Assembly (NCBI GenBank): GCA_964603655.1
Contig: CAZRVZ010000045.1
Coordinates: 790-64,789 of the forward strand
DNA length: 64,000 nucleotides
DNA from: an uncultured Pseudobdellovibrionaceae bacterium
Lineage (GTDB): Bacteria; Bdellovibrionota; FAC87; UBA2466
Reading direction: 5' to 3'
This document shows, in pieces, positions 20,710-53,810 of this stretch. The notes beneath the pieces were generated by a model. That model worked only from the letters and a program-made list of their open reading frames with translations, was not told where the DNA came from and did no database searches. The translations under genes and the position numbers were made by a program. Positions within the stretch are counted from its first letter, which is position 1. The number at the start of each line of letters is the position of its first letter.

Positions 20710-20915
20710 CTGGCTTCCTTTCGCTCATTACAATGATTTGGCACAATATACCAAAGGCCGGGTGCAAAGACCAATGGTGCCGGGCAAAAGCCCAGCACCA
20801 TTGTTTGGGGGGAAATGGGGCGGGGCTGCCAAAGGCATCCCCGGAAACAGTGTCTGCTAAAGGACGAGCGGAGTGTCTTTATGTGACACGCGTTCTCAGG
20901 TATTAAATAGGGTGA

Positions 20916-21293
20916 ATGGAAGATGATGAATTAAGGTTACTCCGGGTATATAAGGACCGCCTCAAAGACCGACGCCAACTGCGCTTCAGACGCAAGTTCA
21001 GGGATGATATCCCCGAACACCTTTCCAGAATAATCAAACAGTTTTTCCGGCAAACACCGGAAAGCGCCCAGCAGATGAGCCATTCGCAGATCCTAATCGC
21101 CTGGCCACGTATCGTGGGTGAAGCCATCGCCCGCCATTCATCCGCCAGGCGGATTCAAGGAGAAAGGCTTTTCGTCCACGTGCTAGATCCCCTCTGGCGA
21201 CAGGAACTGGCGTTTCAAAAAAGCACTCTTCTAAAGCGCTTGCGCGATGAATTTCCCCAGGTTCGCATTCGGGATATTTTTTTTACAGCATAA
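20916..21293 (+). CDS. DUF721/DciA-like protein
   Basis: ILIAWPRIVGEAIARHSSARRIQGERLFVHVLDPLWRQELAFQKSTLLKRL matches the DUF721 (DciA) core. Confidence 0.55.
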   Translation: MEDDELRLLRVYKDRLKDRRQLRFRRKFRDDIPEHLSRIIKQFFRQTPESAQQMSHSQILIAWPRIVGEAIARHSSARRIQGERLFVHVLDPLWRQELAFQKSTLLKRLRDEFPQVRIRDIFFTA

Positions 21294-34935: not shown

Positions 34936-35124
34936 ATGAAAAAAGTCCACTCACCTCAAGAACTTAGCGTCGTTCCGGTTACCGTGAATCTCAAGTCGTA
35001 TATCTTGAGAGACCTCAAGGCTATGGAAAAAAACACCAAAAAATCGGTGGATGATCTCGTTACCACCGCGTTACTCATGTTTATCGCAACGCATAATGAT
35101 TTTCTGGGCAGGCCGAGGTCTTGA
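34936..35124 (+). CDS. small ribbon-helix-helix-like protein (possible regulator)
   Basis: 62 aa. VTVNLKSYILRDLKAMEKNTKKSVDDLVTTALLMFI fits a beta-strand then helix-turn-helix (CopG/ParD) pattern. It sits at the island boundary. Confidence 0.3.
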   Translation: MKKVHSPQELSVVPVTVNLKSYILRDLKAMEKNTKKSVDDLVTTALLMFIATHNDFLGRPRS

Positions 35125-36732: not shown

Positions 36733-36870
36733 CTTTAAAACCCCAAAAAAAGACGTGTTGAGAACTCGGGTTTTATCCTGTTTTCTCCCGTTGATTCAAT
36801 GGGTTTGCAGTCAATGTATTGATTTACCAAACCTTTTTTTGCTAAAACTCTCTTCGCCCAAACAATCACC

Positions 36871-39800
36871 ATGTACCGAAACCCTATCATTTCAATGTTC
36901 ATTTTCGTCTGGGTATTGTTTTTCTGGGCACTACCGAGCCTAGCCGCCGACTCGCCTGTCGCGGAGCAGATTGCCCGCATGGAATCGCAGGTCGCAGAGT
37001 TGCAAAGGCGAATGCCGGTCACGGAGTCCGAGCGCAAGACCATAACCGGTTTGGCCGAAACGGGAATCACGCAATCGGCGAACCTGCAGGCGCAACTCGT
37101 GAAAGAGTGGGACGGGTTTCTGATTCGGCTCCGAGTTCCGGATAATGAGCGGACCGAGTTTAATAAACTGTTTAGCTCCGACGCGGCAGATTCAGGCCAT
37201 CTGGCAGCCTTTCCGGGTACCATCACGCTCCTCAGAGCCCATGTACTTCAAGGAAATCAAGCGCCGATGCAGATGGGACTCGAGCTGATGGTCGCTGGTC
37301 TTCGCATGACCCATTACCGGCTCGTTTGTTTTCACGCCCTGCAATCCGCTACTGCGAGTCCACCCATCCCGCTCGCTGATTTCGATAAGCTACTTCTTTC
37401 GCATTATAGCCAGCTCGCTCTTCTTTTCTCGCTGTACCCGGAATTCCCGGAAATTCTTATGGGTGCTCTCAGAAATAAAACAAACCAGCTGGACTTTTCA
37501 AAACTCATTCCCCTTCTAAATATTTTTTCTACTGGCCCACCCATGACAACCCTGCCGGCGGAATTCGCTGGGCCTGGTAAATTCAGTGCGACTAAGTTGG
37601 CCAACCTACTTGGTATTGGTGAAGGTACTCTGAAGGGCGTGCTCAATGCCGTCGCCACCGCTGAAATAACCACCCAGGAGTTGGAGCACTATCACCTCAC
37701 CCATTATCCACAGTCGGCAAAGCAGGAGGTTCTTGAACACCTGGCGGTCGTGCTCAGGAATGTTCCAGGGCTTCGTGAATGTGTGAATCTCACGAAGTCA
37801 TTTTCAGATAGCCAATCCAAGCCCACAAGCTACAGCGATTTCGAAGGAGCGCCCTGTGATTTCAAGGCTTACGAGGGTGCACTTCGGCGCTATGTTGGTT
37901 TTTACCGCGCCAATCAGGGGACAACGCTCCTTCCAACACTCGAGGATTTCTTTAAGACTTCAGCCGATAATTTTCGAACTCAGAGCGAGATGCGTGACGC
38001 GCTTGGGTCCCATATTTTAACCGACGCAACTGATGACTTTAAAAAACAATGGCCAGCCATCGAAGATCGAATCTTTCAAAACCCCGATACCATTGAACGC
38101 TGGAAAACAACCGACGCTCTTACGCTCACACGGGATCTTAAGGATGTACTATCCAATTCTGGCATTCAGATACAGGAAGGCTTAGACATCAATTACTCCG
38201 AAAACCTCAACCAGGCCGAACATCTCGTTTCCAACCTTAAAAACATGGACACCAACGCCCGCACTTCAGCCGGTGAAATTGTGTCGATAGACTCCCAAAC
38301 GCCCTGCGAGACATTTTTGAGAAAAGACCGATCCGATAATCGGGTCATCCAGACCGTTCGCCAAGCCGAGAGCTACCCGAGCGCCGAGGAGTCTAGCCAC
38401 GGCTTTGCTCGGCTGGTCCGACTTTTTGAGGTAAAGCTTTCTAATCTAGCGACTATTCAAAACCCAGAGACGGTTCACGTCACACTGGCCGGACTCCTAG
38501 GGCAGACCATTCGCGCGCAATTACTGACCAATTACGTTCAGACACAACTCCTCTTGGGAGCTCGATTAAACCGGGACCTGAAACTTCCGCGATCGCCATT
38601 TATTCAATTGATGGAAAATCGATACGGGTACTTGAGCGCCGAGGCGATTATGGCTCAGGCAGCTGACGTTGGAGCCACGGTCATAGGTGATCCCTTTCGC
38701 AAAGACTTTCGCACCAAATTATTGAGCGCGGCAAACCAAATACAAAAACTCGACGCTCTGATCACAAGGCTTAATACCCGCGCTGAGGCTGCGCGCATGG
38801 CCCCGCCCGGACTTTCAAAGATCCTAAATATTCCACCTGAGTTTACAGGTGAGACGGATAAGAGTCAGGCGAGCCAGATGAATCAGGCCCTCATCGACCT
38901 AGCAGGTTATGTTCGGTGGGATTTTGTCGAACGCCACAGCCCCGGTAAAACCATCCATGCACTCCGAAAAATCAATTCTGCCACGCGCCTATCGATTGAT
39001 CAGTTCAAGGAACAGATCGATTGGTACTCGGGCATTGAAAACGGGCGTGTCACTCGCCCCCCTCGTTACACCGATTTTATAGGTCGAGAAGAGCTGGACA
39101 TACTTCAAAAACACCCCGTGCTCCAGGGCATGCTCATCAATCATGTCGACGCTATCATGGATGGCCCCAGAGATTATGCCGTCTGGACACGCGACCTACT
39201 CATTTCCAGGTACCCAATGCTCACTCATGTCGATGCCTCTTCGGGCCGTAAAACCGACCTCTGGAGAAACTATCGGGACCAGGATTTTGATAAAACCCTA
39301 ACAAGCCATCTGACCATGATTCAAAAGACGCTGACCCTCTTTCTCGCTGAGACGGATCTGGATACGTTTTTTAATTCGGCGATTCATAACGGAGCCCTTC
39401 TGGATTATGTGCTCCGCAGGCACCCCGATCAGAAACTGGCTAGTTGCACTGAACAACGCAGGGTCGAGGCAATTCGACTGCGCAATGAACGCATCGTGAC
39501 TGGCCTTAGTTCGCTCGCGCTAAGTTTAAGTTTAATTCCCGAGGTGGGTCCAGCGGCCGCGTTTATTCCCGGTGTTATCGCCGTAGGAATTACCGCCTCG
39601 GAAAACTCGAAGGCCAGAATGGCCGCAGCGCAGTCCCATGCCTACCAAATCGCTTCACTCGCTCAGCGATCCGATTCGGACCGCGCGCTGGACCCGGTCT
39701 ATCAGCGAAAACTGGAGGATCAGTATTTGGTTGCTCAGGTGGAGCATGTGCTCAGTATCGTAGGACTTGCCAGCGCCGGCACCATCCGCTTCTCCCGAAT

Positions 39801-40605
39801 GGCGAAGTTGTTAGGGTCTTTCGAACGTGCCATGCAGTTCAACCGGCTAAGGACAGTTCGTTTCTTTCGGGGCTGGAGGGCTACAAGCGCCGCACCATGG
39901 GTAAAGTCACTCGCGAGTTCAGGCACCAGGCTGCCCGCATTGCGCTTCGGATTAAGAGTTTTCGACATCACAAAACGATCAGGCCAAACCGCCCGTGACT
40001 TTTTCTTTTACCCCTTTCACCGTCTGGGGTTGACCGCACCCTTCGGCTCCAACTGGCGACTGCTTTCTCAATTGAATCCGGGATTATCTCGTACAAAGCG
40101 GGTTTCGATTCGACTCTGGCATTCGGTGGAGGACGGATCTCATATCATCGGTAATCTGCCACTCAGTCCCATAGGCCTACAATTTGGATCGGGTACCGCA
40201 GGGCTGTATCTGCAAGGTTATACTCTCTACGAACTCGGCAACTGGGGCTTTCAGACGTGGAGGGCCTACCAAGCCGCCGCCCGAGAGCTGGTCGTTGCAC
40301 GACTGCACGAAACGCTCCACTCAGAGCAGCCCAATTCTGAGTATATCGATCTTATCGATGCGGTTTACTCGGGCTCACTCACGGTCGAGGAGGCGGCTCG
40401 AGTAATCGAAACCAGCAGAAGTTTTGGGTTTGAAGAGGCGTTGACCGATGTGGTGAAGTCAAATGGCGCCATTGAAGCTCGAAACTCACTAGATTCCGCC
40501 AGAAAGGCTCTAGAATCACAACCAAAGTCGCCCGATCCAATTCACGAATATGCAAAGGCTCGTGCGCTCACACAGATGAGAAAAATCCTCGACCAAATCC
40601 ACTAG
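36871..40605 (+). CDS. large secreted hypothetical protein (1244 aa) with bilobed hydrophobic segment
   Basis: Signal peptide MYRNPIISMFIFVWVLFFWALPSLAADS. No recognisable catalytic domain. Hydrophobic pair LALSLSLIPEVGPAAAFIPGVIAVGITA near aa 870. Isolated HETLH near the C-terminus. Confidence 0.6.
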   Translation: MYRNPIISMFIFVWVLFFWALPSLAADSPVAEQIARMESQVAELQRRMPVTESERKTITGLAETGITQSANLQAQLVKEWDGFLIRLRVPDNERTEFNKLFSSDAADSGHLAAFPGTITLLRAHVLQGNQAPMQMGLELMVAGLRMTHYRLVCFHALQSATASPPIPLADFDKLLLSHYSQLALLFSLYPEFPEILMGALRNKTNQLDFSKLIPLLNIFSTGPPMTTLPAEFAGPGKFSATKLANLLGIGEGTLKGVLNAVATAEITTQELEHYHLTHYPQSAKQEVLEHLAVVLRNVPGLRECVNLTKSFSDSQSKPTSYSDFEGAPCDFKAYEGALRRYVGFYRANQGTTLLPTLEDFFKTSADNFRTQSEMRDALGSHILTDATDDFKKQWPAIEDRIFQNPDTIERWKTTDALTLTRDLKDVLSNSGIQIQEGLDINYSENLNQAEHLVSNLKNMDTNARTSAGEIVSIDSQTPCETFLRKDRSDNRVIQTVRQAESYPSAEESSHGFARLVRLFEVKLSNLATIQNPETVHVTLAGLLGQTIRAQLLTNYVQTQLLLGARLNRDLKLPRSPFIQLMENRYGYLSAEAIMAQAADVGATVIGDPFRKDFRTKLLSAANQIQKLDALITRLNTRAEAARMAPPGLSKILNIPPEFTGETDKSQASQMNQALIDLAGYVRWDFVERHSPGKTIHALRKINSATRLSIDQFKEQIDWYSGIENGRVTRPPRYTDFIGREELDILQKHPVLQGMLINHVDAIMDGPRDYAVWTRDLLISRYPMLTHVDASSGRKTDLWRNYRDQDFDKTLTSHLTMIQKTLTLFLAETDLDTFFNSAIHNGALLDYVLRRHPDQKLASCTEQRRVEAIRLRNERIVTGLSSLALSLSLIPEVGPAAAFIPGVIAVGITASENSKARMAAAQSHAYQIASLAQRSDSDRALDPVYQRKLEDQYLVAQVEHVLSIVGLASAGTIRFSRMAKLLGSFERAMQFNRLRTVRFFRGWRATSAAPWVKSLASSGTRLPALRFGLRVFDITKRSGQTARDFFFYPFHRLGLTAPFGSNWRLLSQLNPGLSRTKRVSIRLWHSVEDGSHIIGNLPLSPIGLQFGSGTAGLYLQGYTLYELGNWGFQTWRAYQAAARELVVARLHETLHSEQPNSEYIDLIDAVYSGSLTVEEAARVIETSRSFGFEEALTDVVKSNGAIEARNSLDSARKALESQPKSPDPIHEYAKARALTQMRKILDQIH

Positions 40606-40639
40606 AGTCACGCGCCACACTTTGAGTTAAACTATTTTT

Positions 40640-41716
40640 ATGAAACGATACCGTCTAGTCTTCCTGGTATTACCTCTCTTATTAGTCCAGTGCAGGTCCA
40701 CACCAACGGCGATCCCGAAGGACCGAGAAGTAACGATCCTTTTTCAGTCAAACCGTTATGGGAACCTCGAAACCTGCGACTGCCATACAAACCCATTTGG
40801 GGGAATCGATCGCGAACACAACGCCACCCAAGACATCAGAAAACGCACTCCGAACATTCTGATGCTGGACTCCGGAAATCTGTTCGTTCCATCGGACCGC
40901 GGAGCGCCGCTCGAGTATTATCAAAAACGCGCCAAACGCCTCGCTCCCATTTTTTTCGAGTTAGGACTCGATGTTTTTGCCCCGGGGCCGAACGATCTGC
41001 TACTGGGAGCAACTGGTTTAAAGGAATTATCAGCCTCGAACTCATTTCGCTGGGTCGCCACAAACATCCGCACAGCGGATGGCTCAGAACCATTCCCTCT
41101 AATCTTAACCTTAGAAAGAGCCGGAATCCGGTTTGCCATAATATCTGCATCCCCCACGTCCGTTAGCACCGACTGGAAGATCCTGGACCCCCTCCAAACC
41201 CTGGAAAAAATGATCCCCGAGGCGGTAAAGGCGTCCGACTTTGTGATACTGCTTTCGCAGCTCGGCAACCCTATCGATATCCAGATAGCCGAACGCTTTC
41301 CCCAGATACAACTCATCGTCGGTTCCGACTCCATCCTGTCAACGGATCGACCCCAATGGTTTGCAGGCCACACACTTATCGTTGACCCCGATCTCAATGG
41401 CTATCTTCTGGGAAAACTGGCCTTAAAACTAAAATTACCGATAAAAGGGCTGTATTCTCCGGTCGATCTCGAGATCAACGAATCACTCCTAAAGGAATAT
41501 CAAGAACGGGCGTCTGCAAAAGATGGAAAACGTTACAAGGACTACGCTGACAAATTAAAATCGCAGAGCCAGCTAAACATCCCCGAACCAGGAAGTATTT
41601 ACGACTTCGAGCTCATTAAGCTCGATGAAGCGCGATTTGGGCTCCCGAAGAATCGATTCACTCAGCACATTTTAGACATGAAGGCGTGGGTTCGAAAGGC
41701 AGCGCTCAGGAAATAG
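40640..41716 (+). CDS. lipoprotein, degenerate 5'-nucleotidase/metallophosphoesterase-like
   Basis: Lipobox LLLVQC. GGIDREHNATQDIRKRTPNILMLDSGNLF aligns to the UshA-type N-terminal domain. The NDHH metal site is replaced by SNRYGN, so the protein is likely non-catalytic. Confidence 0.4.
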   Translation: MKRYRLVFLVLPLLLVQCRSTPTAIPKDREVTILFQSNRYGNLETCDCHTNPFGGIDREHNATQDIRKRTPNILMLDSGNLFVPSDRGAPLEYYQKRAKRLAPIFFELGLDVFAPGPNDLLLGATGLKELSASNSFRWVATNIRTADGSEPFPLILTLERAGIRFAIISASPTSVSTDWKILDPLQTLEKMIPEAVKASDFVILLSQLGNPIDIQIAERFPQIQLIVGSDSILSTDRPQWFAGHTLIVDPDLNGYLLGKLALKLKLPIKGLYSPVDLEINESLLKEYQERASAKDGKRYKDYADKLKSQSQLNIPEPGSIYDFELIKLDEARFGLPKNRFTQHILDMKAWVRKAALRK

Positions 41717-41810
41717 AGAAATGATCGGATGCATTTTTACCCGAAGACTCTAGGGAATACCCCTCGCTCCAAAGGGTCGCGTGAAACGCATGCCTACTAA
41801 TAACGGTAAA

Positions 41811-42614
41811 CTAATTCAGCTCAGGCTTTCCGGTCAGAACACAGCTGCGAACCCCAGCCGGTTCAATGGCATCAGCAGCCCCTGCTCCGGAAAGTGCGGC
41901 GCGGAGGTTAGTGCTAATCGCATGAAGGCGACCATCCCGATAAGGCATGGCGTCATTCGGAAATCCTAAAAAAGCATCCCGAGCGAATTGGACTGTAAGT
42001 CCACGTCCGAGCAATTGTAGCCGATCCATTTCCACAACACTCGCGACGTTGTTAGTCCTACAAAGCGCCCGATCCGTGCAAAGCTTAGCACCTTCCTCGG
42101 CCGCTCCTAACAAGCTTGCAACTGAAGCTTGGTTAGCAACATCAGATGGCGTGGTCGGAGTGCGAAATCGATCGAGCGCTTGAGGCGCCAACCGATCGAT
42201 GATTGCCAAACGATCAGTTGACCGAGGCTGGGGCAGACCCGGCTTCGTTCCCATCGTGACCAGCTCGTTCATCGATACGACGGCATTGCCACCCGCCAAG
42301 GATTGGATCTGTTGGACAAACTCCATTCCACTCACACCGTTTGCCTTAAGTGTCTTGGATAATTCCGTATAATTAACTGTTCTGAGGTTCCCAGCCAGTC
42401 CTCGGCTTTCTAACGATCGGACGGATCCAAAAAGCACGGCCCCTTCGGAACCCAGAGCCTCTATCGCCTGCGTTTTGGAAGTTATGGTTCGCCCGATTAT
42501 CCTTTGAAAAACCTGTACCGTCTTTTCGACGCCGATCTCAGCAGGTGCCAATATATCAGCGACCGCGAATTGGATGAGAAGCATTGAAACTAGAACCGTT
42601 GCCCCGTGAAACAT
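41811..42614 (-). CDS. secreted hypothetical protein
   Basis: 267 aa with an N-terminal hydrophobic signal/anchor MFHGATVLVSMLLIQFAVA. No recognised domain. Confidence 0.45.
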   Translation of the reverse strand: MFHGATVLVSMLLIQFAVADILAPAEIGVEKTVQVFQRIIGRTITSKTQAIEALGSEGAVLFGSVRSLESRGLAGNLRTVNYTELSKTLKANGVSGMEFVQQIQSLAGGNAVVSMNELVTMGTKPGLPQPRSTDRLAIIDRLAPQALDRFRTPTTPSDVANQASVASLLGAAEEGAKLCTDRALCRTNNVASVVEMDRLQLLGRGLTVQFARDAFLGFPNDAMPYRDGRLHAISTNLRAALSGAGAADAIEPAGVRSCVLTGKPELN

Positions 42615-42861
42615 TTAAACCTCCACCAGATTCAGTTGTTAAGCTCGTCTTATGACACAGCGTATTAATGGCATCAAGCAGAAATGTGACCTATTGCGTC
42701 TTTAGCTCGATGTCTTCTTAACTCATTGATATTTCAAATATTTATTTCAGTACTTAGCATACTCATTTTTTGCCTAACGGATTGATGTTGTGAGTCATTT
42801 TACTGTATCCTCCTCGGCACCGTAAAACTGGAGAAAAGCCATCCGCACCCTTAAAGAAGTA

Positions 42862-45800
42862 TTGATTCGCGTGCTTTGCACCTATCTGAGCGTCTTTTTG
42901 GCGATGCCTCCAAGCGTCTGGGCCGAACCATTCGATCAGATGACGCAGAAGGCACACATTGCGCAGTTGGAGAGCAAAGCGCCCAGCTGGAACGACGAAC
43001 GCCTCAAGGTATATCAGGCATTTCTGCTCGCATCCTGGAAGCTATCGGCTCTTTTGAGAGACCCACGCCTGGGAGCGATTGCGCTCATCCGGGAATCCGA
43101 AGATCGCGTCCTATTGTCAGCCTACAAAAATTGCCCAAGCCCGTGGAAAGAGGCGCCCGAATCATCTGAGATAAATTCAACCGTCACATCCCTCATTACA
43201 AATGTTCAAACGGCTCTGAATGCCCTATTCGAAAATCATGTTCTAGAAATTGGGTCCGTAGAGATCGAAACGGCTCCGGAAGGTCCACTCACGACACCGA
43301 CCGTGGAGTCGGATTTAAACGGAGCCATCTGCATTCCAGCCACTTTGATTTCTCATTCCTCAACTCACGATTCGCTGGACTCGCTTATCGCCTCAACCGA
43401 ATCAGCAATCCAGAGTGTTCAGAGGCCAATACACACACTGCTCCTGTCTAAAGTTACTCATGGTGGCATCGTAACCAATTTGGAAGTCCGTCGCTGGATA
43501 TCCTGGCTTGTGGGACTGCGGGAACTCTCGGCGCACACGATACATTTGCAGCCCAATTTGCCATCCAACGGTGGCGTTCAGGCGGCTCGTTTTTCAAAAA
43601 AGGTGGGGGACAAACTTTCCCTCGCGTATCGATCGGCAAAAAACACGCTGCTCACGCTGGGTGCTGCTAAAAATGACTTACCTCGATTTGAACCGTGTGT
43701 CGGTGAAAATCAAACGTCCGATTTCTTGTGCCTAATCGTGCCACCGCCTTCCGCCTTAGAGCAGGCTCGTGACAGGATCTTTCACCAGGCTCGGGAAAGG
43801 GCATACGACCACGGCAAAGGACTGGAGGCCATGCGTAGGTATAGCCTCATTATGAAGGGCGTTCCGGAACGCGCAGTCATCAGCCTTGCGCTCGGAAATG
43901 AAAACCCGGAGCTCAAACTTCCGGCATGCATGGGTTCGTCCGATGGGGCACTCATGCAGGATGTCTACCGCGAAAGCATTCAAACGGCCGCTAAATCGAG
44001 AGCAACCAATCAATTCCTCCAAGCGCTCGACCGAGTCAGCGCAAAGTATCGCGATAATTCCCTAGCACCACCAATCCCCAAAACGGACGAGATTTACACT
44101 GAAGGGCACACAATCGCGCTGTCCTTATTTATGACGGCTTTACAAAACCAACGTGAGGCTTCGGGTAGAGTGGCGAGCCATCTCGATACCTACAACTTTC
44201 GCGATTTTTTTCACAGCCAGCGGTTCTTAGATCAATTTCCCGACCATCTGAGTGGCAAACTAAAACTCACCCTCGCCTTTGTGAATGATGAGCTTTCTGA
44301 ACTAGCACCAGAACGGAGAACGGCCTTTCTCACTGGGCACATAACTGACACGATCCGTTATGTGCTGCACGACTCCCTGCTTAATTTTATTTTGGTAGTT
44401 GCAAGCGACCTCGGCATCGATGAGCAAGCAATAGCTGCAGAGTGGGAGCGCACGTTTGGTGCCCAATGGCAGTCCATTCTGGAGGATCCGCTGCTTCGGG
44501 CCGATATCTCTCAAATGGCGGAGACCGTGACCGCCCACATTAATACTAGTACGACGGCCCAACCGACCAACACGTTAGAGTGGTCGAATCAGAATCTTAG
44601 GACCTATGTGGACGCCCTTTCCGAGCAAGCGGTGCGGGCGGCCCACGCCGATGAAACCTACCGGTTCATGGAGAGTTTGTCTGAGTGGAAAAATGGCGGG
44701 GAGTCGGTCCTTTCCGGACCGCAGACCTATTATTGGAACCGCAGCGGCATTCACTTTTCACCGGTAGAGCTCAAACCCGAGCGCCCCAGCGATTATCGTC
44801 ACCTAAAGGAGCCCCTTAAATCCTTGGCCGAGGCTCACCGTAAAGCGCTGATCGACCGCCTTCAGTCGCAGGGATTTAACAATGAATTTGTACGGGCCCG
44901 ATTCGCTCTGCCCACGACGGATGCGCTAGCCGATCGTATCCTGGCCTATTTTGACCAGCTCGTCGCAGCGGACCCCAAGAAGTTTGAGGCCGACAGAATG
45001 CAGCAGAGGCAACAGGCATTTCAGCCATTACTAACCTGGCTCAACTCACCCCACGCGCGGGCTCAGTATGATGCCGCTGCCGGGCGGCTCTCTACCGAGA
45101 TTTTGGAGGCCGATTTGCGTCCATTCCTGGAGCAGGTTCCGAGCAGAGAATCGGCGCAATTCACAGCTTGGGAAGCTCAACTAAAGGCGGTTTTAAAGAC
45201 GATGTCGGACACCAAGACCTTTCGAACCCCTCCCGATACAGAAACCATTCTTAAGGTGAACAGTCGGTCCGACAACCGACTCCGCGAGTCGATTTCCAAT
45301 CTGCTCCGGGAAGTGACAGAACGAGGCTATTTTTCGGACCTGGAAACTGGGCTCCAAAAGTGCCTAAACGAACCCGAGAAATGCACGAGTCTACTAAAAT
45401 CAGTGCAGACTATTTTAACCAATCCCGCCCTAGAGCAATTGTACGAATGGCGGGTGATATCCCATTCGCTCAATCACGGTATTAATTTTCTGAATTACTT
45501 CGGGGCTGATGGAGACGTTTATGCCCCCCCACCCGTTGCGTCGCCTGTGCCAGAACTCGTGATATCGCTACGCGCAAAACTGAACGACATTTGGTTCGGT
45601 TTTCCTGGCTCGCCACCGAAGCATCCATCGGAGCATCCTTTGGGTCTGGCCAAGGAAGTTGATGCACTTTTAGTCGCCCTTTCCAAATCAGCACACGTGA
45701 ACCGGACTGGGGAATTGGATGGCTTTCACCAAAGTCTACTGGCGGACTTCCAACCGACAATTTCCAAAACCATTTCCGAAATGCACGCATTTCATCGTTG

Positions 45801-48800
45801 GCACGGTCATATTAAATCTTTGCTTCCGATGCTGACCGTTCCTGTCGATCGATTAACTCCGGCACTTTGGGAACAGGCAAGAACACTTATCCTAAACGAG
45901 CTTTCATACCTGCAGGGCGTTCGATTGCCGTTTTTAAACGCCCCCTCGGATTTGGACTCGTCACGAGCGCTGCTTCTCGATTTCTCGACCTATCGTAGTC
46001 GTCTTAATCATCTAGCCCGTATCGTGCTCAATCAGGGAACCGATCCGGCCGAGATTATTCACCAGGCCGAGGACGCACTCAGAGGTCTTCGCGCCATTAC
46101 CAAACCCACCGAGATGGTTCAACGCAGGATACGAATTCTGGGATCCCAGTTATCGGACGCCAAAAAGGACTTGTCAGCGTATTCAGAACTCCGGGGACTC
46201 GTTCGTCACTATATCCCCGCTCTCGCCGAGTCCAAGCAGGCTCTAACAATGGATATGGGCTCGCTCGGGCTCACCGAACGTTGGAATGCCTACTTCGAGG
46301 ATCAACTCCTCGACAAAAATGCTCGCGTCACGCTCAAGGATCTCAATTCATTGATCGCCAAATCGCAGTTCAATCAGCCAGTGGAACCACTTGACCCTCT
46401 GAATAAATCGACTATCGAAACCATTCTCAAGGATTCCATCAGTTATTTTACAAAGCTTCAGGCAGACCCGCTCACCGAGTCTTTTTTTCACCGTGAAGCC
46501 ATTCGTCATCGCATCCAAGGCCTCCCCGATTACACTTTAAGCCACGTACCTGGTAATATCGCTGGGCCTGCACTTTTTATGGCCGGGCTCAAGGTCGTCC
46601 ACGCGCGACTCATGCCGTATCTGATGCCTCGCGGATCGACGAATGAGGAGCTTTATCAGAAATTCGTTCGCGCCTCGGTTTCGACAGGGTCAGCGACTCA
46701 GTTAGATAATCTGATCGCCATCCTGCCCAGCCCCCGAGAGGTAACGACTTCGTTACTGTCTGAGGCGCAAGAAATCTTACGCGCTCTTAACGACAAAAAT
46801 GAATCGGCACAAACCAACTTCAGGGCATTTGCTCGCTCGCTCACCGATCTGAGTGCTTCGCGGCTGAGTACTCCGGAGCTGAGTACTCCGGAGCTGAGTG
46901 CTCCGGAGCTGAGTACTTCGGGGTTTGCTCCGTTCCTGGATTCTGAAGGAACCGAGGTTTCCATCAGCTCGACCGGACCCCACTCGGAGTTGGCGTTTCC
47001 TAAGGGTATAGATACTGAACTGTCGTTTCTTAATCGGGTCATTTCAAACCTATCAGTGAGTCATCGTTCGTCGCTACTGAGTCGGGCGGGGGTGGAAACT
47101 CCAGACACCAAATCTGCTGCAGAGCTACTCAATCGACTCAGTCCAAACGACAGGTCCCGCGTATACCGACACCTCTTGACCGAGGTGGAACGCAGTATTT
47201 CAACCCACGCGAGCATTTCTACAAACCCGGTTGCCAAGGCGCTATTTCCGCAGGGGGACACGCAAGAGACACTCAGCCCGACCTGGAACGCAGATTTGGA
47301 GCGGGCCATAGCCTTCTATGAAAAAAAGTCATCCCTACTACGCAAAGGGCAAACCCCAGCGTTGACTCGACTCATCGCCTTGACCCTTTTTGAGTACCTT
47401 GCACCCATTGGCTTTCGCTTCTCGGAAAAACAACTGGTCCAGAATGCTAAGATTCCAATCGATGTTAGTCGCGATCAATTGAGTCAAGCGCCGACTGCTG
47501 TTTTAAATCATTTTATTCAGGATGTCCGTTACCGCTACTATCAGGAGGTCGCTAGCAAGTCGGGGTTTTCAGCTTTTTCAAAAAGCACATCTATAGATGA
47601 TACGAATGACATTACGAAAATAGGTCCTGAAACCGCGACACTTCGTTTACTCTTGCGTCGCACTGTCATTCCACTGTCATATGCTCTCGCTGTTATTTCG
47701 GCTGAAAGTGAAGCTCTCTTACCCTTTTGGGCAAAGTGGAAACCCGGATCCACTAGTCACCTGGCGAAAGATTTTACAGAGTGGTTTTCTAAACTTGCAT
47801 CCTTAGATTCGCTCCGTTCGTCGTGGGGTCAACCCAATTCACGCGGCATTTCGAGTCGACACCCCAGTCTCTCGAGCTTTTCGAAGTCCAAAGAATATCG
47901 CCATCTCATGGTTCATCTGGTTTCGCTCGACGCCAATCAAACTGTTTCCGATGGGACGGGAAGTTATCCGGCACTTTTGGCTCAGCTCAATTGGAGCATC
48001 AACCGGAGTGGACGTACGTTCGATAGGACCGCGCGACCCATTCCAGCACCCCCGACCTTCAGAGAGCTAGACTACCTGGTCCGTCATCTCATCGACGTTA
48101 TTGGAATCGATCTCAAACGGTTCGATTCCTGGAGGCAGCTACTCGATACCCATCAAGGTGCTCCACCGGAATTGTGGGCACTGGCCTCGCGCAGTTTGCG
48201 CGATTCGATCTCGGAAGTTGGACAGGGTGGGTTTCTCGGCGTGAAGATTGCAGCACCACAGTCAGAAAGTCCACACACGCTTTTTGGAAACCATGGTTAT
48301 ATTCCGTATCCTGTCGTCAATGCGTCTGAGAGAGAACTATTTTGTGCCACTGACGACCTGACTGATTGGCTGGGTCGAGCCGAACAGCGGCTGCACCCCC
48401 CACACACCCAGTGGCTCAGATTTGAACGGGACGCATCCATATCCCAAAAGTCCCGGCTGGATAATGAAGTGCGGGGCCAAAAAGAGTACAGCCTCTATCA
48501 TGAGATTGCCCAGATAGAATCGGATGACATGGTGGGTCTTCAGGATACTATCGATGGAAACCCTACAATCAGAAATCGATTTCAATCGCGCTGGGATCGC
48601 TGGAATGCACTACCCTTTGGAACCGCAGTCTTGCCGGCAGTCGAACTCAACTCTTTGCAAGCACAGCTGGCCAAGGACAATATTTCCTCTAAGCAATCGG
48701 AACTCGAACGCATCTTCCGAGTACGCGAAGCATTGGTCGATTTTCGCCGCACGTTGAATGAAATCAATCTACAAGAAGGCGTCAACTGGTGGAGAGAGTC

Positions 48801-51800
48801 GCGCAATCTCTTCACGGGTGATCTCGAAAATCAATTGAATCTGGCGCTGGCGCAGTTTGGAAAACAGATCGCAACCGAAGGTTGGACCGACCGATTCCCC
48901 CGGTTCCCCCAGTTCCCAATGGCCGGTCGGAATTCAAAGGGAACCTTTGCCGAGCGCCGTCGAAGTAGTATCGGGAGCGCCATCTTTCACGCTTCGCGTG
49001 CGGTGCACGATACCTTGTATAAAGGTAGATCTCCGGAAGATACGGCTCGCGTTCGGAAGATTCTCGGCGTGATGGACACCCATTTCACGCGGTCGGTTGA
49101 AGTGGGGAGCGTTCGCAAAACTCTTGAAACCACGGCCAAGAATTTGGATGAAACCTTGGCTCGTCTTTGCCTGGCCGATTTTTCTGCCATTCATTCCAAT
49201 GATGACTTTAAACGCAGCAAAGATTCGATCCTCGCCTCCGGACTTCCATTCTTTGACAGTCACCAGCAACAACTTTTTACGGATTCTCAGATGCTTCCCA
49301 GCGGGTCACAGGAAACACACAATCGTCTCATCACCTTGTCACAGGAGATTTCCGATCGCGCAAAACTCATGAAAAACATCGAGTGGGGTTTTAACGCGCT
49401 GATGGTCGTTTCATTAGTAGCCCTTGTCGCTGGAAAGAGCTCACCTTCACTGTCCCACTGGGTTCTGGCAACGGGCGCAAGACGAACCACCGCTGCAGTC
49501 GCGGCCTCACTCGTTACGATCTTGTGGGTTGGCATCGAGGCGAATGGCTATGCCGAGGATTTCCACGTTGTCCCGCAGGATCTGCGCGATAAGCTCCACA
49601 TTCGCGACTCCCAATTCAGCGGGAACAACACCTTCCTTTCACCACAAAATGCTGCAGCCCTTTTTGATGCGATCCGCACCAACGACCAAGCCCAAGTAAG
49701 TGGGTTCCGATGGACATTCCGAGTTCTTGCCGCACTCGCCGGATTTCAACTTTTGCGTCCTTGGCTGAAAGCAGCACTCGGTGGTCCGGGTTATCTGCAG
49801 AAAGTAATCAGGCATGATTTCCGTGGCATTGCCAATTCCCGGCTGCGCCATGACCTACTCACATTAGGACAGGGCAAATTTCCCAACGCGATCGCTCACC
49901 TCGAACAGTTGAGTCCGATGGAGGCGCAAGAAAAGGTGGTAGGTGCGTACCTTGCGGAACTAGGTGCCACCCGAACAGGTTCGGGAGTCTACCGCATCTC
50001 TAACACCACCGCGCGCCGACTCTCGGAAGATGCCACTCGGCAGCTCAAGCAATTATCCAAACAATTGGGAATAGACCCTAATGATTTTGGGGCCCTCTCG
50101 GATGAATCCTTAAATTTACTGTCTCCTAAAAGGGTGATGGAGGAACGCGCAAAGTCTCTGCCGCGACTGAGAGATCTTCGTTATTGGGCTGGTCGTTTTT
50201 CAGGCAACACGACCTTTCACCAGGATGAACTAATGGATGGGGTTCTCGCCATCGTCGGCGTCCAGTCAAGTATCACGTCTCGCTATGTACCGCTCTGGCT
50301 TCGCTTTTTCGGGGTGGAATACCCGACTCCCACATCACTTTCACTCTCGAAACTTCAGCGCCTCAACCAGGCGCAGCTGGATATTTTGAGTTATTACCAC
50401 CCTCGCGTCAGATACGCCCTGGCTCAACTATCGGAGGCCTCTGGCCGAACTATTCAGCCCTGGGAAATTTTTGTGCCCTCCAAGATGGCGTCTTGGACAG
50501 CGCCCAAACCCATGCGCATGCTCCTTGGCTCTGTAAAAACTCGCGCCGTTTCGGCCTCCAATGCGTTTTTGGACAGAGCCCCGTATCTTTATGAATCCCC
50601 CGAATCACGGGCTCTGGTGTCACGACAACTCCAGCGGGAGGTATTTGAAACGGCTCTCCTGGAGACGGGAGAGTCCCCGATAGCCTCTTCACTACCGTCT
50701 GAAATCCTGGATCAGGCAGCGCGCTTACGATTGGAGTATGGACGTACTCGTTTTAATTTATTAGTCGAAGAGTATTTGATTGCCGAGGGGCTCTCGCTGC
50801 CATCACACGAAAAGACTCAGCTCGAGCTACTGGGCCAACTGGTGGGTTGGGATGCATCCGCTAGAGATCTGATCCTTATCCATATTCGGTCCAAAAACCC
50901 AAGGCAGTCGGTAACCGAAACTGACATCCAGGAAGTCATCGTCGCAATGATAGACCCCAAACACCCCCGGTTTGCCGAACTGAATCGAGTGCTCCCAAAA
51001 ACCGAATCGGAGTTTCACCCTGGTACGGATGCTCCTTTTACAGAAACCGATTTGATTGATGGCCCGCTCGATCTTTCCGAGCACGCGCTAAAGCTCCGCA
51101 CTATTTTAAAAGATTATCATCCCGACACGCGCCTGCTTCAGGCCATCGCGCGATCGGACTACTCCCAAATGGCGTCAGCCCTCACGGCAAGGAGAGTTGC
51201 TCAGTTTACATCTCAAACCATGGGGACACCGGACGCAGCGGCAGATACAATGGCGGAACCAGGTGGTGAGGGCTCGCCGCGAGAACCAGAGTCACCAGTC
51301 CGACCAAGCGTCCGCCCTGCACCCAAACCGAAAATGGATCTGGCATCGATTCCCCCGCCAAGAAACGAAGCCGAGATACTTAAAGAGCGTCTGGCTGATT
51401 TGGAAAAAGGAATCCTCCCAACCGATGTGCGCGAACCGCATCGTTTGATTTCAAAGCACAATCTATTTCAAGTAGTCGATAGAACTCTACTGGTCGCACA
51501 CGCACCCAGTCACAAGAACCACATCGTAATCAACCTTTTCGCTGAGGGTGTTAGACCAGAAGGAATCGATTCGGCGCTGGGGGAATTGATAACTCACGGT
51601 CTGGCTACCGACGAAATCATCGCGGCCTATCGATACGCGTCTGATAGTCTACGCACTTTGGAGATAATAGCCCAAGCTACGGAAGCTGGAGTGGTTCAGC
51701 CATCCGAGAAGACACAACTCTTCGAGTGGTGTGTAAAGATGTACCTCGGACACCCGGAAAAATTGGCCGCGCGCGCGATGACCCCCAGCGAGTCGGCTTC

Positions 51801-53409
51801 AATACTTGGCCTTTCCGCTTTGCGTGCCCCTCAATACTCCGCCCAGACCGTGAACTTGGCCGCGGAGAAAGCAGCGGGTCGCCAAATAAATCAATCTTTT
51901 ACCCGACAGGCCAGCCGGGCCTTCGAGCTTACGCGCGACGGACAGATTCAGTCGCTACGGGATATCTCGGATGCCCTTCATTTTCCATTAGAATATTTCG
52001 ACCGCCCCGAGCTCGTGACCGGTGTACTCCACAGAATTGTTTCCTACAACGCTCGGGCGGAGCGCACATTAGCTAAACTTTATCAGGGTGCGTTCCACGA
52101 CTCGGTCGAAGATGCCCGTGTGGCACTGGTACTAGCTGATTCAAAAACTGCCAACATTACAGCCCGAATTACCGACCGGATTCGAACCTTACGTGAAGAG
52201 ATTTCGGGACGAATAGAGTTGTCCGAAAATCGGGCCATCCACGAAGAGGCTATCCGACGCCTTGAGAGAGCTCAGCACATTCTGGAATCCCCAGAAGGGA
52301 CTTTTCCGGCAAAGTACATTGCACCTAAAGTGTTTCCAGACGTTCCTCGCTCGCTCACAATATCCGAATCCTCTGCCGAAACTACTGAGTTGTTTAATAC
52401 CCATTGGGAAAACCTCATGAAAACACTGCCTGCCGAGAGACAGGCAGAACTGGGGCCACTCCTCGGTGCACTTCCAACCCAGAGTCTCAGTGGCGCTCGG
52501 CGCAATTTGTGGAAAGCGCTCGGGGCACAGCAGTTCGCTTTCGGCTCGCCGGAGCACCACCTTCAACGCAAAGCGCTTCGGCTTATTCATTCCCACTTTC
52601 TTGTCGAACAGGCAAAGCAGACCGGCTGCGTAGTAACCGATGCAGAGGTGACTTCCCTCTTTGATTCGCTGGTCCGCCACTATGTTGAGAGGGATTCCAT
52701 CCATTTTGAATTGTCAGTCGATGAAGCTGAGATTCTGATCTCGGCCAGTACCCGCTTGCGCACATCCCAGCTGGAATTTGGCAAAAATCATGAGCGCCTC
52801 GAGGAATTTTGGAAGGCACTCTCACTAGAGGGGCATTTAATAGGAAAGGGCGAAGGAAATATTTCCCAAGCACTGCACGACCAGCTCGCCCTTGCGGCGG
52901 AAACGGTCAAGGCAACACTGTATCCCGGCAAAGAGCTGTCTATTCGCCATTTCGGTTATTATGATTTGGAAACGCTCTTTCTGAGTAGCTATTCTCGTTT
53001 GCCGCTCGAGGTAGTGATCGAACCGGAGATTTTAGCCAATCGGAAACTAGTTTATCTGTTCCTGGACGGACCGGGAGTAAAGCGAGCATCGGAATTAAAG
53101 ACGAAAGGTGATTGGGTCATCGAACTCTTCACCGATGGCGCTCCATTTTCCGAAAAATTAGCCGAGACCGCCGAGTATCAGCTCGCTCAATACGAAATCT
53201 GGCGACGGCTTAAGTGGAATGCAGATCTTCCCCCGGGGCCGGCCAGAGACCGAGGTCAACAGATCCTGGAGCACGCGCTAGGCCGATTTGGCGCGTCTCC
53301 AAAGGTGGAACCCTCACTTCCAAAACTCGAGCGGCCACGACGAATTATCGTCCCCTCGGAGAATACACCCAAACCTCAGCGGCTGATTTTACCGAAGGAT
53401 TTTCAATAA
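42862..53409 (+). CDS. giant secreted hypothetical protein (3515 aa)
   Basis: Uninterrupted 10.5-kb ORF. Signal peptide MIRVLCTYLSVFLAMPPSVWA. Predominantly helical composition. Internal TM-hairpin-like pair near aa 2170-2230. A 15-bp repeat encodes STPELSTPELSAPELS. Preceded by a 247-bp AT-rich promoter region. Confidence 0.7.
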   Translation: MIRVLCTYLSVFLAMPPSVWAEPFDQMTQKAHIAQLESKAPSWNDERLKVYQAFLLASWKLSALLRDPRLGAIALIRESEDRVLLSAYKNCPSPWKEAPESSEINSTVTSLITNVQTALNALFENHVLEIGSVEIETAPEGPLTTPTVESDLNGAICIPATLISHSSTHDSLDSLIASTESAIQSVQRPIHTLLLSKVTHGGIVTNLEVRRWISWLVGLRELSAHTIHLQPNLPSNGGVQAARFSKKVGDKLSLAYRSAKNTLLTLGAAKNDLPRFEPCVGENQTSDFLCLIVPPPSALEQARDRIFHQARERAYDHGKGLEAMRRYSLIMKGVPERAVISLALGNENPELKLPACMGSSDGALMQDVYRESIQTAAKSRATNQFLQALDRVSAKYRDNSLAPPIPKTDEIYTEGHTIALSLFMTALQNQREASGRVASHLDTYNFRDFFHSQRFLDQFPDHLSGKLKLTLAFVNDELSELAPERRTAFLTGHITDTIRYVLHDSLLNFILVVASDLGIDEQAIAAEWERTFGAQWQSILEDPLLRADISQMAETVTAHINTSTTAQPTNTLEWSNQNLRTYVDALSEQAVRAAHADETYRFMESLSEWKNGGESVLSGPQTYYWNRSGIHFSPVELKPERPSDYRHLKEPLKSLAEAHRKALIDRLQSQGFNNEFVRARFALPTTDALADRILAYFDQLVAADPKKFEADRMQQRQQAFQPLLTWLNSPHARAQYDAAAGRLSTEILEADLRPFLEQVPSRESAQFTAWEAQLKAVLKTMSDTKTFRTPPDTETILKVNSRSDNRLRESISNLLREVTERGYFSDLETGLQKCLNEPEKCTSLLKSVQTILTNPALEQLYEWRVISHSLNHGINFLNYFGADGDVYAPPPVASPVPELVISLRAKLNDIWFGFPGSPPKHPSEHPLGLAKEVDALLVALSKSAHVNRTGELDGFHQSLLADFQPTISKTISEMHAFHRWHGHIKSLLPMLTVPVDRLTPALWEQARTLILNELSYLQGVRLPFLNAPSDLDSSRALLLDFSTYRSRLNHLARIVLNQGTDPAEIIHQAEDALRGLRAITKPTEMVQRRIRILGSQLSDAKKDLSAYSELRGLVRHYIPALAESKQALTMDMGSLGLTERWNAYFEDQLLDKNARVTLKDLNSLIAKSQFNQPVEPLDPLNKSTIETILKDSISYFTKLQADPLTESFFHREAIRHRIQGLPDYTLSHVPGNIAGPALFMAGLKVVHARLMPYLMPRGSTNEELYQKFVRASVSTGSATQLDNLIAILPSPREVTTSLLSEAQEILRALNDKNESAQTNFRAFARSLTDLSASRLSTPELSTPELSAPELSTSGFAPFLDSEGTEVSISSTGPHSELAFPKGIDTELSFLNRVISNLSVSHRSSLLSRAGVETPDTKSAAELLNRLSPNDRSRVYRHLLTEVERSISTHASISTNPVAKALFPQGDTQETLSPTWNADLERAIAFYEKKSSLLRKGQTPALTRLIALTLFEYLAPIGFRFSEKQLVQNAKIPIDVSRDQLSQAPTAVLNHFIQDVRYRYYQEVASKSGFSAFSKSTSIDDTNDITKIGPETATLRLLLRRTVIPLSYALAVISAESEALLPFWAKWKPGSTSHLAKDFTEWFSKLASLDSLRSSWGQPNSRGISSRHPSLSSFSKSKEYRHLMVHLVSLDANQTVSDGTGSYPALLAQLNWSINRSGRTFDRTARPIPAPPTFRELDYLVRHLIDVIGIDLKRFDSWRQLLDTHQGAPPELWALASRSLRDSISEVGQGGFLGVKIAAPQSESPHTLFGNHGYIPYPVVNASERELFCATDDLTDWLGRAEQRLHPPHTQWLRFERDASISQKSRLDNEVRGQKEYSLYHEIAQIESDDMVGLQDTIDGNPTIRNRFQSRWDRWNALPFGTAVLPAVELNSLQAQLAKDNISSKQSELERIFRVREALVDFRRTLNEINLQEGVNWWRESRNLFTGDLENQLNLALAQFGKQIATEGWTDRFPRFPQFPMAGRNSKGTFAERRRSSIGSAIFHASRAVHDTLYKGRSPEDTARVRKILGVMDTHFTRSVEVGSVRKTLETTAKNLDETLARLCLADFSAIHSNDDFKRSKDSILASGLPFFDSHQQQLFTDSQMLPSGSQETHNRLITLSQEISDRAKLMKNIEWGFNALMVVSLVALVAGKSSPSLSHWVLATGARRTTAAVAASLVTILWVGIEANGYAEDFHVVPQDLRDKLHIRDSQFSGNNTFLSPQNAAALFDAIRTNDQAQVSGFRWTFRVLAALAGFQLLRPWLKAALGGPGYLQKVIRHDFRGIANSRLRHDLLTLGQGKFPNAIAHLEQLSPMEAQEKVVGAYLAELGATRTGSGVYRISNTTARRLSEDATRQLKQLSKQLGIDPNDFGALSDESLNLLSPKRVMEERAKSLPRLRDLRYWAGRFSGNTTFHQDELMDGVLAIVGVQSSITSRYVPLWLRFFGVEYPTPTSLSLSKLQRLNQAQLDILSYYHPRVRYALAQLSEASGRTIQPWEIFVPSKMASWTAPKPMRMLLGSVKTRAVSASNAFLDRAPYLYESPESRALVSRQLQREVFETALLETGESPIASSLPSEILDQAARLRLEYGRTRFNLLVEEYLIAEGLSLPSHEKTQLELLGQLVGWDASARDLILIHIRSKNPRQSVTETDIQEVIVAMIDPKHPRFAELNRVLPKTESEFHPGTDAPFTETDLIDGPLDLSEHALKLRTILKDYHPDTRLLQAIARSDYSQMASALTARRVAQFTSQTMGTPDAAADTMAEPGGEGSPREPESPVRPSVRPAPKPKMDLASIPPPRNEAEILKERLADLEKGILPTDVREPHRLISKHNLFQVVDRTLLVAHAPSHKNHIVINLFAEGVRPEGIDSALGELITHGLATDEIIAAYRYASDSLRTLEIIAQATEAGVVQPSEKTQLFEWCVKMYLGHPEKLAARAMTPSESASILGLSALRAPQYSAQTVNLAAEKAAGRQINQSFTRQASRAFELTRDGQIQSLRDISDALHFPLEYFDRPELVTGVLHRIVSYNARAERTLAKLYQGAFHDSVEDARVALVLADSKTANITARITDRIRTLREEISGRIELSENRAIHEEAIRRLERAQHILESPEGTFPAKYIAPKVFPDVPRSLTISESSAETTELFNTHWENLMKTLPAERQAELGPLLGALPTQSLSGARRNLWKALGAQQFAFGSPEHHLQRKALRLIHSHFLVEQAKQTGCVVTDAEVTSLFDSLVRHYVERDSIHFELSVDEAEILISASTRLRTSQLEFGKNHERLEEFWKALSLEGHLIGKGEGNISQALHDQLALAAETVKATLYPGKELSIRHFGYYDLETLFLSSYSRLPLEVVIEPEILANRKLVYLFLDGPGVKRASELKTKGDWVIELFTDGAPFSEKLAETAEYQLAQYEIWRRLKWNADLPPGPARDRGQQILEHALGRFGASPKVEPSLPKLERPRRIIVPSENTPKPQRLILPKDFQ
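46864..46920. repeat. 15-bp tandem repeat (about 3.7 copies, gagctgagtactccg) inside the giant gene
   Basis: Direct repeats seen in the sequence. They encode (STPEL)n. Confidence 0.75.
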
Positions 53410-53717
53410 TCCAACAGCCTCTGTTGAATGCCGAAACACCTGGATGCGAATACAGCACCGCCAACTATTTGATAGGACGCCGATTATTAAATAATTGTTA
53501 GTGCGCGATCTAGCATACGACAGATCGAGTGCCGTCCACTACCGTAGACTAGGCAGTAGAATTACTTGGCACTGCCATTGCAGTAATAAAATATTGAGAA
53601 TTTATTTCGGTGCTCTAAAGCATTTTTGAGCTGAGCGACACTTGAAGCAGACCGTATGTGACACTGTTCCTGAGTAGCGTGCGTAGCACCGGATTTAGTT
53701 TGGTCCCCTATCCCCCA

Positions 53718-53805
53718 TGAATTGGTGAATTGGTACCAGGTACCTTTCAGGACTGCATTATTTAACACAGTCCTGAAAGGTACCTGGTACCAATTCACCA
53801 ATTCA
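53718..53805. repeat. perfect 38-bp inverted repeat (12-nt loop), hairpin/cruciform and likely bidirectional terminator
   Basis: tgaattggtgaattggtaccaggtacctttcaggactg ...cattatttaaca... cagtcctgaaaggtacctggtaccaattcaccaattca. It abuts the ppsR stop. A T-run (cttttt) follows 14 nt downstream on the plus strand. Confidence 0.8.
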
Positions 53806-53810
53806 CTAAT

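Follow-up and report, generated by a model that had tools for sequence, protein, structure and literature searches.

The 64,000-nucleotide stretch analysed here (the window) comes from contig CAZRVZ010000045.1 of an uncultured Pseudobdellovibrionaceae bacterium and contains a giant open reading frame (ORF) of 3,515 codons at positions 42862 to 53409. The giant ORF is a real gene. Judged from sequence and fold searches, its product belongs to a new protein family, one that can be placed in no described sequence family or fold. The chances are about even that this giant protein is an all-alpha envelope protein inserted in the producer's own inner membrane by three helices (H1, H2 and H3), with the N-terminus outside and the C-terminus inside (N-out/C-in). 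The features of the gene and of the protein (numbered in amino acids, aa) are as follows:

42615-42861, no strand: AT-rich divergent intergenic region of 247 bp between gene w267 (minus strand) and the giant gene (plus strand); presumed promoter region
42862-53409, plus strand: giant gene, 3,515 codons plus stop, TTG start, uninterrupted frame
42862-42924, plus strand: Sec-type signal peptide, aa 1-21, predicted cleavage between VWA and E
42925-49377, plus strand: N-terminal exported part, aa 22-2172, all-alpha, carrying every conserved cysteine column
46846-46921, plus strand: in-frame 15-bp tandem repeat encoding (L)STPEL about four times, in a poorly conserved stretch
49378-49434, plus strand: H1, first hydrophobic helix, aa 2173-2191, IEWGFNALMVVSLVALVAG
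49435-49485, plus strand: H1-H2 loop, aa 2192-2208, KSSPSLSHWVLATGARR, net positive, predicted to be cytoplasmic
49486-49542, plus strand: H2, second hydrophobic helix, aa 2209-2227, TTAAVAASLVTILWVGIEA
49543-49704, plus strand: H2-H3 loop, aa 2228-2281, acidic, predicted to be periplasmic
49705-49773, plus strand: H3, moderately hydrophobic helix, aa 2282-2304, FRWTFRVLAALAGFQLLRPWLKA, candidate third span
49774-53406, plus strand: C-terminal part, aa 2305-3515, helical, predicted to be cytoplasmic

Apart from the giant protein, a word-indexed homologue search returned a single orthologue, P0002 (3,379 aa, 38% identity), which comes from a groundwater metagenome-assembled genome (MAG) labelled Deltaproteobacteria bacterium. 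A scan of the genome-representative collection found only P0002 and a scan of the metagenome collection found no homologue. Exhaustive HMMER searching with the best-conserved section of the protein (aa 1697-2713) detected 29 representatives at E<=1e-3, 26 of them at E<=1e-10. Nearly all of these proteins are 2,857-4,336 aa long and carry the matched section at a similar relative position. For twenty full-length members the alignment runs from end to end, with 19-24% identity to the window protein. Common to the family are the signal peptide, the hydrophobic module formed by H1, H2 and H3, and the motifs TYPYFLALLNWN, RFLST, YRP.P.VD..ER, REALVDFR and EDF..P..L..IRDS.F.G..PLM.DE.A, the last of which is the conserved motif of the H2-H3 loop. 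The best-conserved N-terminal blocks in the conservation profile are aa 300-750 and aa 1650-1800.

No relatives of the giant protein were detected in Pfam, NCBIfam, PDB or fold searches. Pfam contains no domain matching it or any of four homologues, NCBIfam, PADLOC and PHROGs gave no match to it, and PDB sequence searches with two profiles returned only noise (E>=0.2). AlphaFold2 was run with family alignments on two sections. Both models are almost purely helical, with a predicted local distance difference test score (pLDDT) of 74.6 and a predicted template modelling score (pTM) of 0.53 for aa 1697-2713, and a pLDDT of 74.1 and a pTM of 0.41 for aa 22-1150; in a Foldseek search with the N-terminal model the best E-value was 0.28. 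The first-pass annotation had noted a helix-favouring composition and no Ig, cadherin, RTX or beta-helix repeats. The models, Pfam and self-comparison all agree with this description: no internal repeats were found at the sequence or profile level, and the all-alpha models and the lack of any Pfam match do not fit a repeat-built adhesin or toxin (Ig-like, cadherin, RTX, beta-helix/FHA). A J-domain was considered for the C-terminal '…EA..LGL…HP(D/E)' motifs and rejected: their spacing does not fit, the HPD is unconserved and there is no Pfam DnaJ match.

The protein begins with a signal peptide, as had been claimed from the window sequence. Its N-terminus reads MIRVLCTYLSVFLAMPPSVWA, followed by E after the cleavage site, and the pattern M.R.L..YLC.F..(F/V)PP.VWA recurs in P0002 and in distant homologues when their frames are read from the proper start. 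The call was made by reading the sequence and by family conservation. The parts are M-I-R, then VLCTYLSVFLAM, then PPSVWA before E, and they supply what Sec export calls for: an N-terminal basic residue, a hydrophobic core of ~12 residues and small residues at -3 and -1. This n-h-c pattern, ending in VWA before E, is conserved. The public gene model is 3,501 aa long and starts at ATG 42904, which cuts the signal peptide off. TTG 42862 is the better start, because the signal-peptide pattern is conserved in P0002 and in distant homologues. Several homologues (P0011, P0013, P0018, P0021, P0024) appear to be N-terminally truncated in the same way in public models, and with such late starts automated localisation would wrongly assign these proteins and the giant protein to the cytoplasm. 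As a separate observation, the signal peptide (…YLC.F..FPPQVWA) is unusually conserved in the window protein, P0002, P0007-P0009, P0020, P0023, P0024, P0028 and P0030, though the mature proteins are only ~20% identical. Signal peptides ordinarily diverge freely, and this conservation hints at a specific recognition or processing requirement.

The hydrophobic module lies two thirds along the protein. In the window protein, H1 and H2 are the two most hydrophobic 19-mers (Kyte-Doolittle hydropathy over 19 residues, KD19, of 1.75 and 1.61), and their position is conserved in 20 homologues, with H1 reaching a KD of 2.1-2.2 in several of them. The pair is taken as real because of this conservation, not on the strength of single-sequence hydropathy. 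The first-pass annotation had recognised this pair and had missed a third conserved hydrophobic helix, H3 (aa 2282-2304), which has a KD17 of 0.7-1.6 across the family and is followed by a conserved GG and then a basic stretch. The conserved position in 20 homologues, together with flanking charges that follow the positive-inside rule, makes it very probable that the pair spans a membrane, in line with the earlier suggestion.

The charges around the three helices alternate. The H1-H2 loop, which has ~19 aa and a net charge of ~+3 in the window protein, is net positive in 18 of the 20 homologues (sum +54). The H2-H3 loop is net negative in 19 of them (sum -88) and its length is nearly fixed, at 56 aa in 13 of 20. 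The 30 aa after H3 are again net positive in 19 of 20 (sum +90). An alternation of +54/-88/+90 over 20 sequences is consistent with three spans under the positive-inside rule, for helices of which H3, and in the window protein also H1 and H2, are only marginally hydrophobic.

Cysteines are distributed unevenly about the module. Counting a column as conserved if the cysteine occurs in at least half of the 20-member alignment, ten columns were found (C91, C157, C279, C290, C356, C834, C841, C1196, C1295, C2103), all of them before H1 and including the close pairs C279/C290 and C834/C841. After H3 there is no conserved column, and cysteine density drops from 4.3 per 1000 residues ahead of H1 to 1.6 per 1000 past H3. 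The C-terminal part, devoid of conserved cysteines, ranges from ~620 to 1,870 aa in homologues and is poorly conserved beyond aa 2500. The signal peptide, the charge alternation and the position of the cysteines before H1 together point to co-translational insertion in the producer's inner membrane that would put the first ~2,150 aa on the outside and the C-terminal part on the inside.

Two homologues from other metagenomes have unusual C-terminal or joined sequences. P0022 (3,799 aa) has ~1,870 aa after H3, compared with ~620-1,550 aa in the others, and its end resembles by eye a SAM-dependent methyltransferase, with no Pfam match at E<0.01. In P0026 (698 aa) the hairpin module is joined to a phosphodiesterase/pyrophosphatase-like sequence; this may be a chimeric contig.

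Several points weigh against three spans in the inner membrane. The topology was derived from hydropathy, charge bias and conservation. A comparable hydrophobic pair arises in 228 of 2,000 residue shuffles, so chance could account for the pair in the single sequence. H1 and H2 of the window protein are only marginally hydrophobic: each contains ~17 apolar residues, and a rough additive estimate of the insertion energy is >0 for both. H3 is amphipathic, carries arginines and has a KD17 of 1.1 in the window protein. It is the weakest link of the topology and may lie on the membrane surface, which would leave the C-terminal part periplasmic as well. The structure model of this section has two 44-residue helices, with H1 and H2 close to the turn between them (H1 ends one of the two), and it makes H3 a separate helix; the pLDDT falls to 55-64 at the hairpin tip.

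Among the other explanations, the one that survives best is a two-span hairpin, which we consider rather unlikely. Here only H1 and H2 would lie in the inner membrane, H3 would be interfacial or soluble, and both the N-terminal 2,150 aa and the C-terminal 1,200 aa would be periplasmic. H1 and H2 are indeed the two strongest hydrophobic segments, and H3, with its moderate KD17 of 0.7-1.6, contains Arg and His. Against this, the basic 30 aa that follow H3 and the acidic H2-H3 loop form the pattern expected of a helix that crosses the membrane, and the ten conserved cysteine columns before H1, with none after H3, also speak against this reading.

It is quite unlikely that the giant protein is a secreted effector or toxin which inserts its hairpin in a foreign membrane of prey or host, either in the manner of Inc proteins or as a buried hairpin released on contact, as in colicins or the diphtheria toxin T-domain. 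The first-pass annotation had seen in the bilobed segment the hallmark of Inc-like membrane-inserting effectors. Inc proteins are usually ~100-1000 aa long with the hydrophobic domain near the N-terminus. They occur in Chlamydiae only and are secreted by the type III route (PMC3048545, PMC3656976). The likeness is real in part: aa 2173-2191 and aa 2209-2227 form a bilobed hydrophobic domain, conserved in 20 homologues, in which two adjacent hydrophobic helices are separated by a short loop, and in both cases the protein is otherwise soluble, mostly helical and unlike any other family in sequence. However, Inc proteins have no cleavable Sec signal peptide, whereas the giant protein has a conserved one, and it further differs from them in its 3,515 aa, in its hydrophobic module two thirds along the chain, in its third helix and in its non-chlamydial lineage. 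Two of the three hallmarks of an Inc protein that were looked for are thus lacking, and the Sec signal peptide, the lineage, the basic loop and the third helix speak against the Inc-like assignment. No secretion system genes, type III included, were found within the window. More generally, a secreted protein could not easily drive a short basic H1-H2 loop through a foreign membrane, and insertion in the cell's own inner membrane accords with a third hydrophobic helix and the strongly basic residues that come after it. Hydrophobic helical hairpins also occur in pore-forming colicins and in the diphtheria toxin T-domain, which share with the giant protein a moderately hydrophobic, Ala/Val/Gly-rich helix-loop-helix inside an all-alpha protein. 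The giant protein showed no such hairpin packed into a compact helical bundle of recognisable fold, and a toxin-like buried hairpin fits the charge pattern poorly.

A soluble giant protein of the periplasm, whose hydrophobic segments would be buried core helices that never enter a membrane, is improbable. The shuffling result and the marginal hydrophobicity of the window protein would fit such a protein. Against it stand a clearly membrane-grade H1 in several homologues (KD 2.1-2.2), an alternation of positive, negative and positive charge across 20 sequences that is not expected of a buried core, and the model, in which a long two-helix hairpin has H1 and H2 close to its turn.

That the ORF is one intact gene was checked against other assemblies. 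Its codon-position GC (0.59/0.44/0.54) is like that of nusA, infB, PBP1A, hflX and SHMT in the same window, and GC at the third position (GC3) is uniform from end to end; because of this match and this evenness the ORF is regarded as native coding sequence. An independent short-read assembly of a near-identical strain, contig L011, covers window positions 35931-46869 at 99.9% identity. Codons 15-1336 (1,322 codons, 3,966 bp of the gene) are open in it, with M990V as the sole amino-acid change and no frameshift. The claim of a single uninterrupted gene thus holds, given the open frame, the native codon usage and ~20 collinear full-length homologues, and freedom from frameshifts, which the first-pass annotation had asked to be checked, is confirmed directly for the 38% of the ORF covered by this second assembly and supported, for the 3' 62%, by the collinear full-length homologues only. 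L011 ends at window position 46869, at the STPEL repeat. Tandem Repeats Finder (TRF) describes this repeat as 3.9 copies of a 15-bp period at 46863-46921 with 93% matches, and it is an insertion relative to P0002, which is without it. The first-pass annotation had suggested that the repeat could drive length variation; the one fact bearing on this is the contig end at the repeat, and any 60-bp tandem repeat can cause such a break in a short-read contig. An artefact in which several genes were fused through mis-assembly or overlooked frameshifts could be suspected of a metagenome-derived contig with 38% of the ORF in a second assembly of the same strain, and it can hardly be true given ~20 homologues of 2,857-4,336 aa that are collinear over the whole length, an orthologue (P0002) identical across two separate MAG assemblies, the uniform codon-position GC and the absence of frameshifts across 3,966 bp in L011.

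Upstream of the gene, the AT-rich region noted at first pass was confirmed: the 247-bp gap (42615-42861) has 38.5% GC versus 51.6% for the window, which is below 99.98% of the 247-bp windows in the sequence. One weak sigma-70-like site was detected in it, on the minus strand only.

If the three-span topology is taken as a working model, insertion would proceed as follows. The conserved signal peptide would direct the N-terminus through Sec and be cleaved after VWA, and ~2,150 helical residues would be translocated to the periplasm, where the conserved cysteine pairs would stabilise them. H1 would stop translocation, the short basic H1-H2 loop would be kept in the cytoplasm, and H2 would lead back to the periplasm, placing the acidic, highly conserved H2-H3 loop of fixed length on the periplasmic face. 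H3 would then cross again, so that the variable C-terminal part (~1,200 aa) ends up in the cytoplasm. Anchored in this way, the protein would link a cytoplasmic module to a very large periplasmic one, as a trans-membrane scaffold or tether, and it would work together with the exported proteins encoded beside it.

The working principle of a membrane-anchored envelope scaffold is already known. Helical scaffolds that are anchored in the inner membrane and span the periplasm are found in type IX secretion (GldM/PorM) and in type VI secretion (TssM/IcmF). The giant protein has no sequence or significant fold similarity to them, its predicted periplasmic part is 3-10x larger, and its membrane helices differ from theirs in order and orientation; its gene cluster contains no type VI or type IX secretion genes. 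The N-terminal region of Helicobacter pylori CagA (PDB 4dvz) is also listed among the closest known systems. A further parallel is found in Omnitrophota and other putative predators, whose giant proteins (West-Roberts et al., bioRxiv 10.1101/2023.11.21.568195) exceed 10,000-30,000 aa, have numerous transmembrane regions and mostly carry SecA-DEAD, dockerin, peptidase or carbohydrate-active domains. The two groups share very long genes, uncultured and possibly predatory lineages, membrane segments, sequences largely unannotatable with HMMs and a proposed cell-surface role. The present family differs in its size (2,857-4,336 aa), its one compact three-helix module and its lack of any recognisable domain.

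The giant gene is the last of a cluster, w535 (-), w1244 (+), w358 (+), w267 (-) and the giant gene (+), that lies between PBP1A/w62 and a kinase/PPPase gene. The partners of the giant gene are:

35125-36732, minus strand: w535, putative lipoprotein (…LVGC), cluster member in the window and in locus L005
36871-40605, plus strand: w1244, 1,244 aa, signal peptide, no Pfam match
40640-41716, plus strand: w358, putative lipoprotein, UshA/SoxB/5'-nucleotidase-like metallophosphoesterase
41811-42614, minus strand: w267, 267 aa, signal peptide, divergent from the giant gene, no family match

All cluster partners carry signal peptides or lipoboxes, and the block has no Pfam match. The assignment of w358 comes from NCBIfam UshA_like_PCGU (9e-35, 120 bits, below the cut-off of 275) and from the PDB 5'-nucleotidase 2z1a (4e-5); it has no Pfam match at E<=1. 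This gene is found in every occupied locus whose upstream side was captured (the window, L001, L004, L005, L006), with homologues in L001, L004 and L005 and 36% tblastn identity in L006. For w1244, phmmer detected L005_1249 (1e-71) and L004_1401 (1e-13), and the positional analogue in L006 has 1,265 aa. w267 is 45% identical to L001_260, and the genes that take its position in L005, L004 and L006 encode 278, 325 and 327 aa. w535 contains a 12-bp tandem repeat of ~5 copies (35149-35208), in-frame and encoding an (NGES)n-like C-terminal tail, which is the second in-frame microsatellite of the cluster beside the STPEL repeat of the giant gene.

The order of the cluster is stable and its presence is not. 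In L004, L005 and L006 genes of ~1,250 aa, ~360 aa and ~270-330 aa (minus strand) precede the giant gene, and this layout is kept in loci whose giant proteins are only 22-26% identical. In all three loci PBP1A and a conserved gene of 59-71 aa adjoin the cluster. The site is occupied in L001, L004, L005, L006 and L012 (the L012 contig ends inside the giant gene) and empty in L007 and L013 (NusA 72% identical), where the kinase/PPPase gene directly adjoins a 61-62-aa gene and PBP1A and tblastn with the giant protein gave no match. The giant gene is also absent from more distant relatives (NusA 56-61%). Since the flanks are directly joined in L007 and L013, the cluster is accessory and subclade-specific and belongs to neither the PBP1A nor the nusA operon. 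Its divergence far outpaces that of the housekeeping genes on either side: identity to L001 is 38% for the giant protein, 45% for w267 and 49% for w358, compared with 88% for NusA, 87% for the kinase/PPPase, 78% for HflX, 78% for SHMT and 72% for PBP1A. No mobile-element signatures were found flanking the cluster (no direct or inverted repeats, no tRNA, no Rfam match).

Two other ideas about the neighbourhood were set aside. A functional link to PBP1A through constant adjacency was downgraded, as the empty sites show that the cluster was inserted or deleted beside PBP1A. A polymorphic-toxin/immunity arrangement was rejected: the small 3'-adjacent gene of L004, L005 and L006 encodes the conserved 59-71-aa protein, which is present at empty sites as well. 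In the window this protein is w62 (34936-35124, plus strand), which lies beside PBP1A on the opposite strand and has no Pfam match. The family follows the pattern MKK..ELS..P.T.NL..HI..DLK.MEK.TK....L.TKALLMFIATHNDYLG, and homologues are found in L001, L004, L005, L006, L007, L012 and L013, with or without the giant cluster.

Downstream, the giant gene (stop at 53409) and the kinase/PPPase gene (stop at 53811) converge on a gap that contains a near-perfect inverted repeat of 43 nt with a 2-nt spacer (53718-53805), present once in the window. Its fold has a stem of 38 bp and a loop of 12 nt (-70.6 kcal/mol, z = -14.6 vs shuffles), and it might serve as a bidirectional terminator or represent a small palindromic element. 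In L001 the giant gene is directly followed by a 353-aa gene (20145-21206, minus strand) with a match to Pfam Lsa36, a Leptospira surface adhesin; in the window the long hairpin is all that the corresponding interval (53410-53810) contains, and there is no gene.

The rest of the window is housekeeping: a rimP-nusA-infB-rbfA-truB-rpsO-pnp operon, PBP1A, hflX, SHMT, fabF, a two-component system and peptidases. A 205-aa protein at 15370-15987 (plus strand) has a weak DnaJ match, below the Pfam cut-off, and an HTH_25 domain. It adjoins a ParA/MinD-like ATPase (14396-15373) and could be a RodZ-like protein of the cytoskeleton or of cell division. All of the best NusA relatives are metagenomic, and where they are labelled they read Deltaproteobacteria, Bdellovibrionales or Proteobacteria bacterium, which are non-chlamydial labels and do not agree with the restriction of Inc proteins to Chlamydiae. 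A search for a cultured member or a published description of the clade found none. On the available sequences, the giant family appears to be confined to this one uncultured Bdellovibrio-like clade, in which it is undescribed and fast-evolving.

We infer, more weakly than the topology, that the giant protein and its cluster form a lineage-specific envelope or cell-surface apparatus for interaction with prey, host or phage, as opposed to serving a housekeeping role. A role at the cell interface is suggested because the cluster is accessory, clade-restricted and rapidly diverging and has in-frame microsatellites in two of its genes. The role is derived only from distribution, evolutionary rate and microsatellites. 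For this clade, known only from MAGs, the lineage label suggests that the lifestyle may be predatory. A fuller version of the idea is a tentative one and doubtful as it stands: the three-span giant protein would be the core of a new trans-envelope apparatus with its exported partners w1244, w358 and w267, with a helical reach of ~2,150 aa across or beyond the periplasm and cytoplasmic control by ~1,200 aa, serving attachment to or invasion of cells and specific to one uncultured Bdellovibrionota-like subclade.

Lineage-specific giant hypothetical proteins are many, and the present finding is solid as a new family and modest as biology until a function is attached. The family can serve as a diagnostic, fast-evolving marker for an uncultured clade known only from metagenomes. 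If the three-span topology is true, the giant protein would connect cytoplasm and periplasm through one very large chain made wholly of non-repetitive helices. The giant gene and its three or four exported partners (w1244, the phosphoesterase-like lipoprotein w358, w267 and w535) also make up a defined, testable cluster for the study of how this clade interacts with its surroundings.

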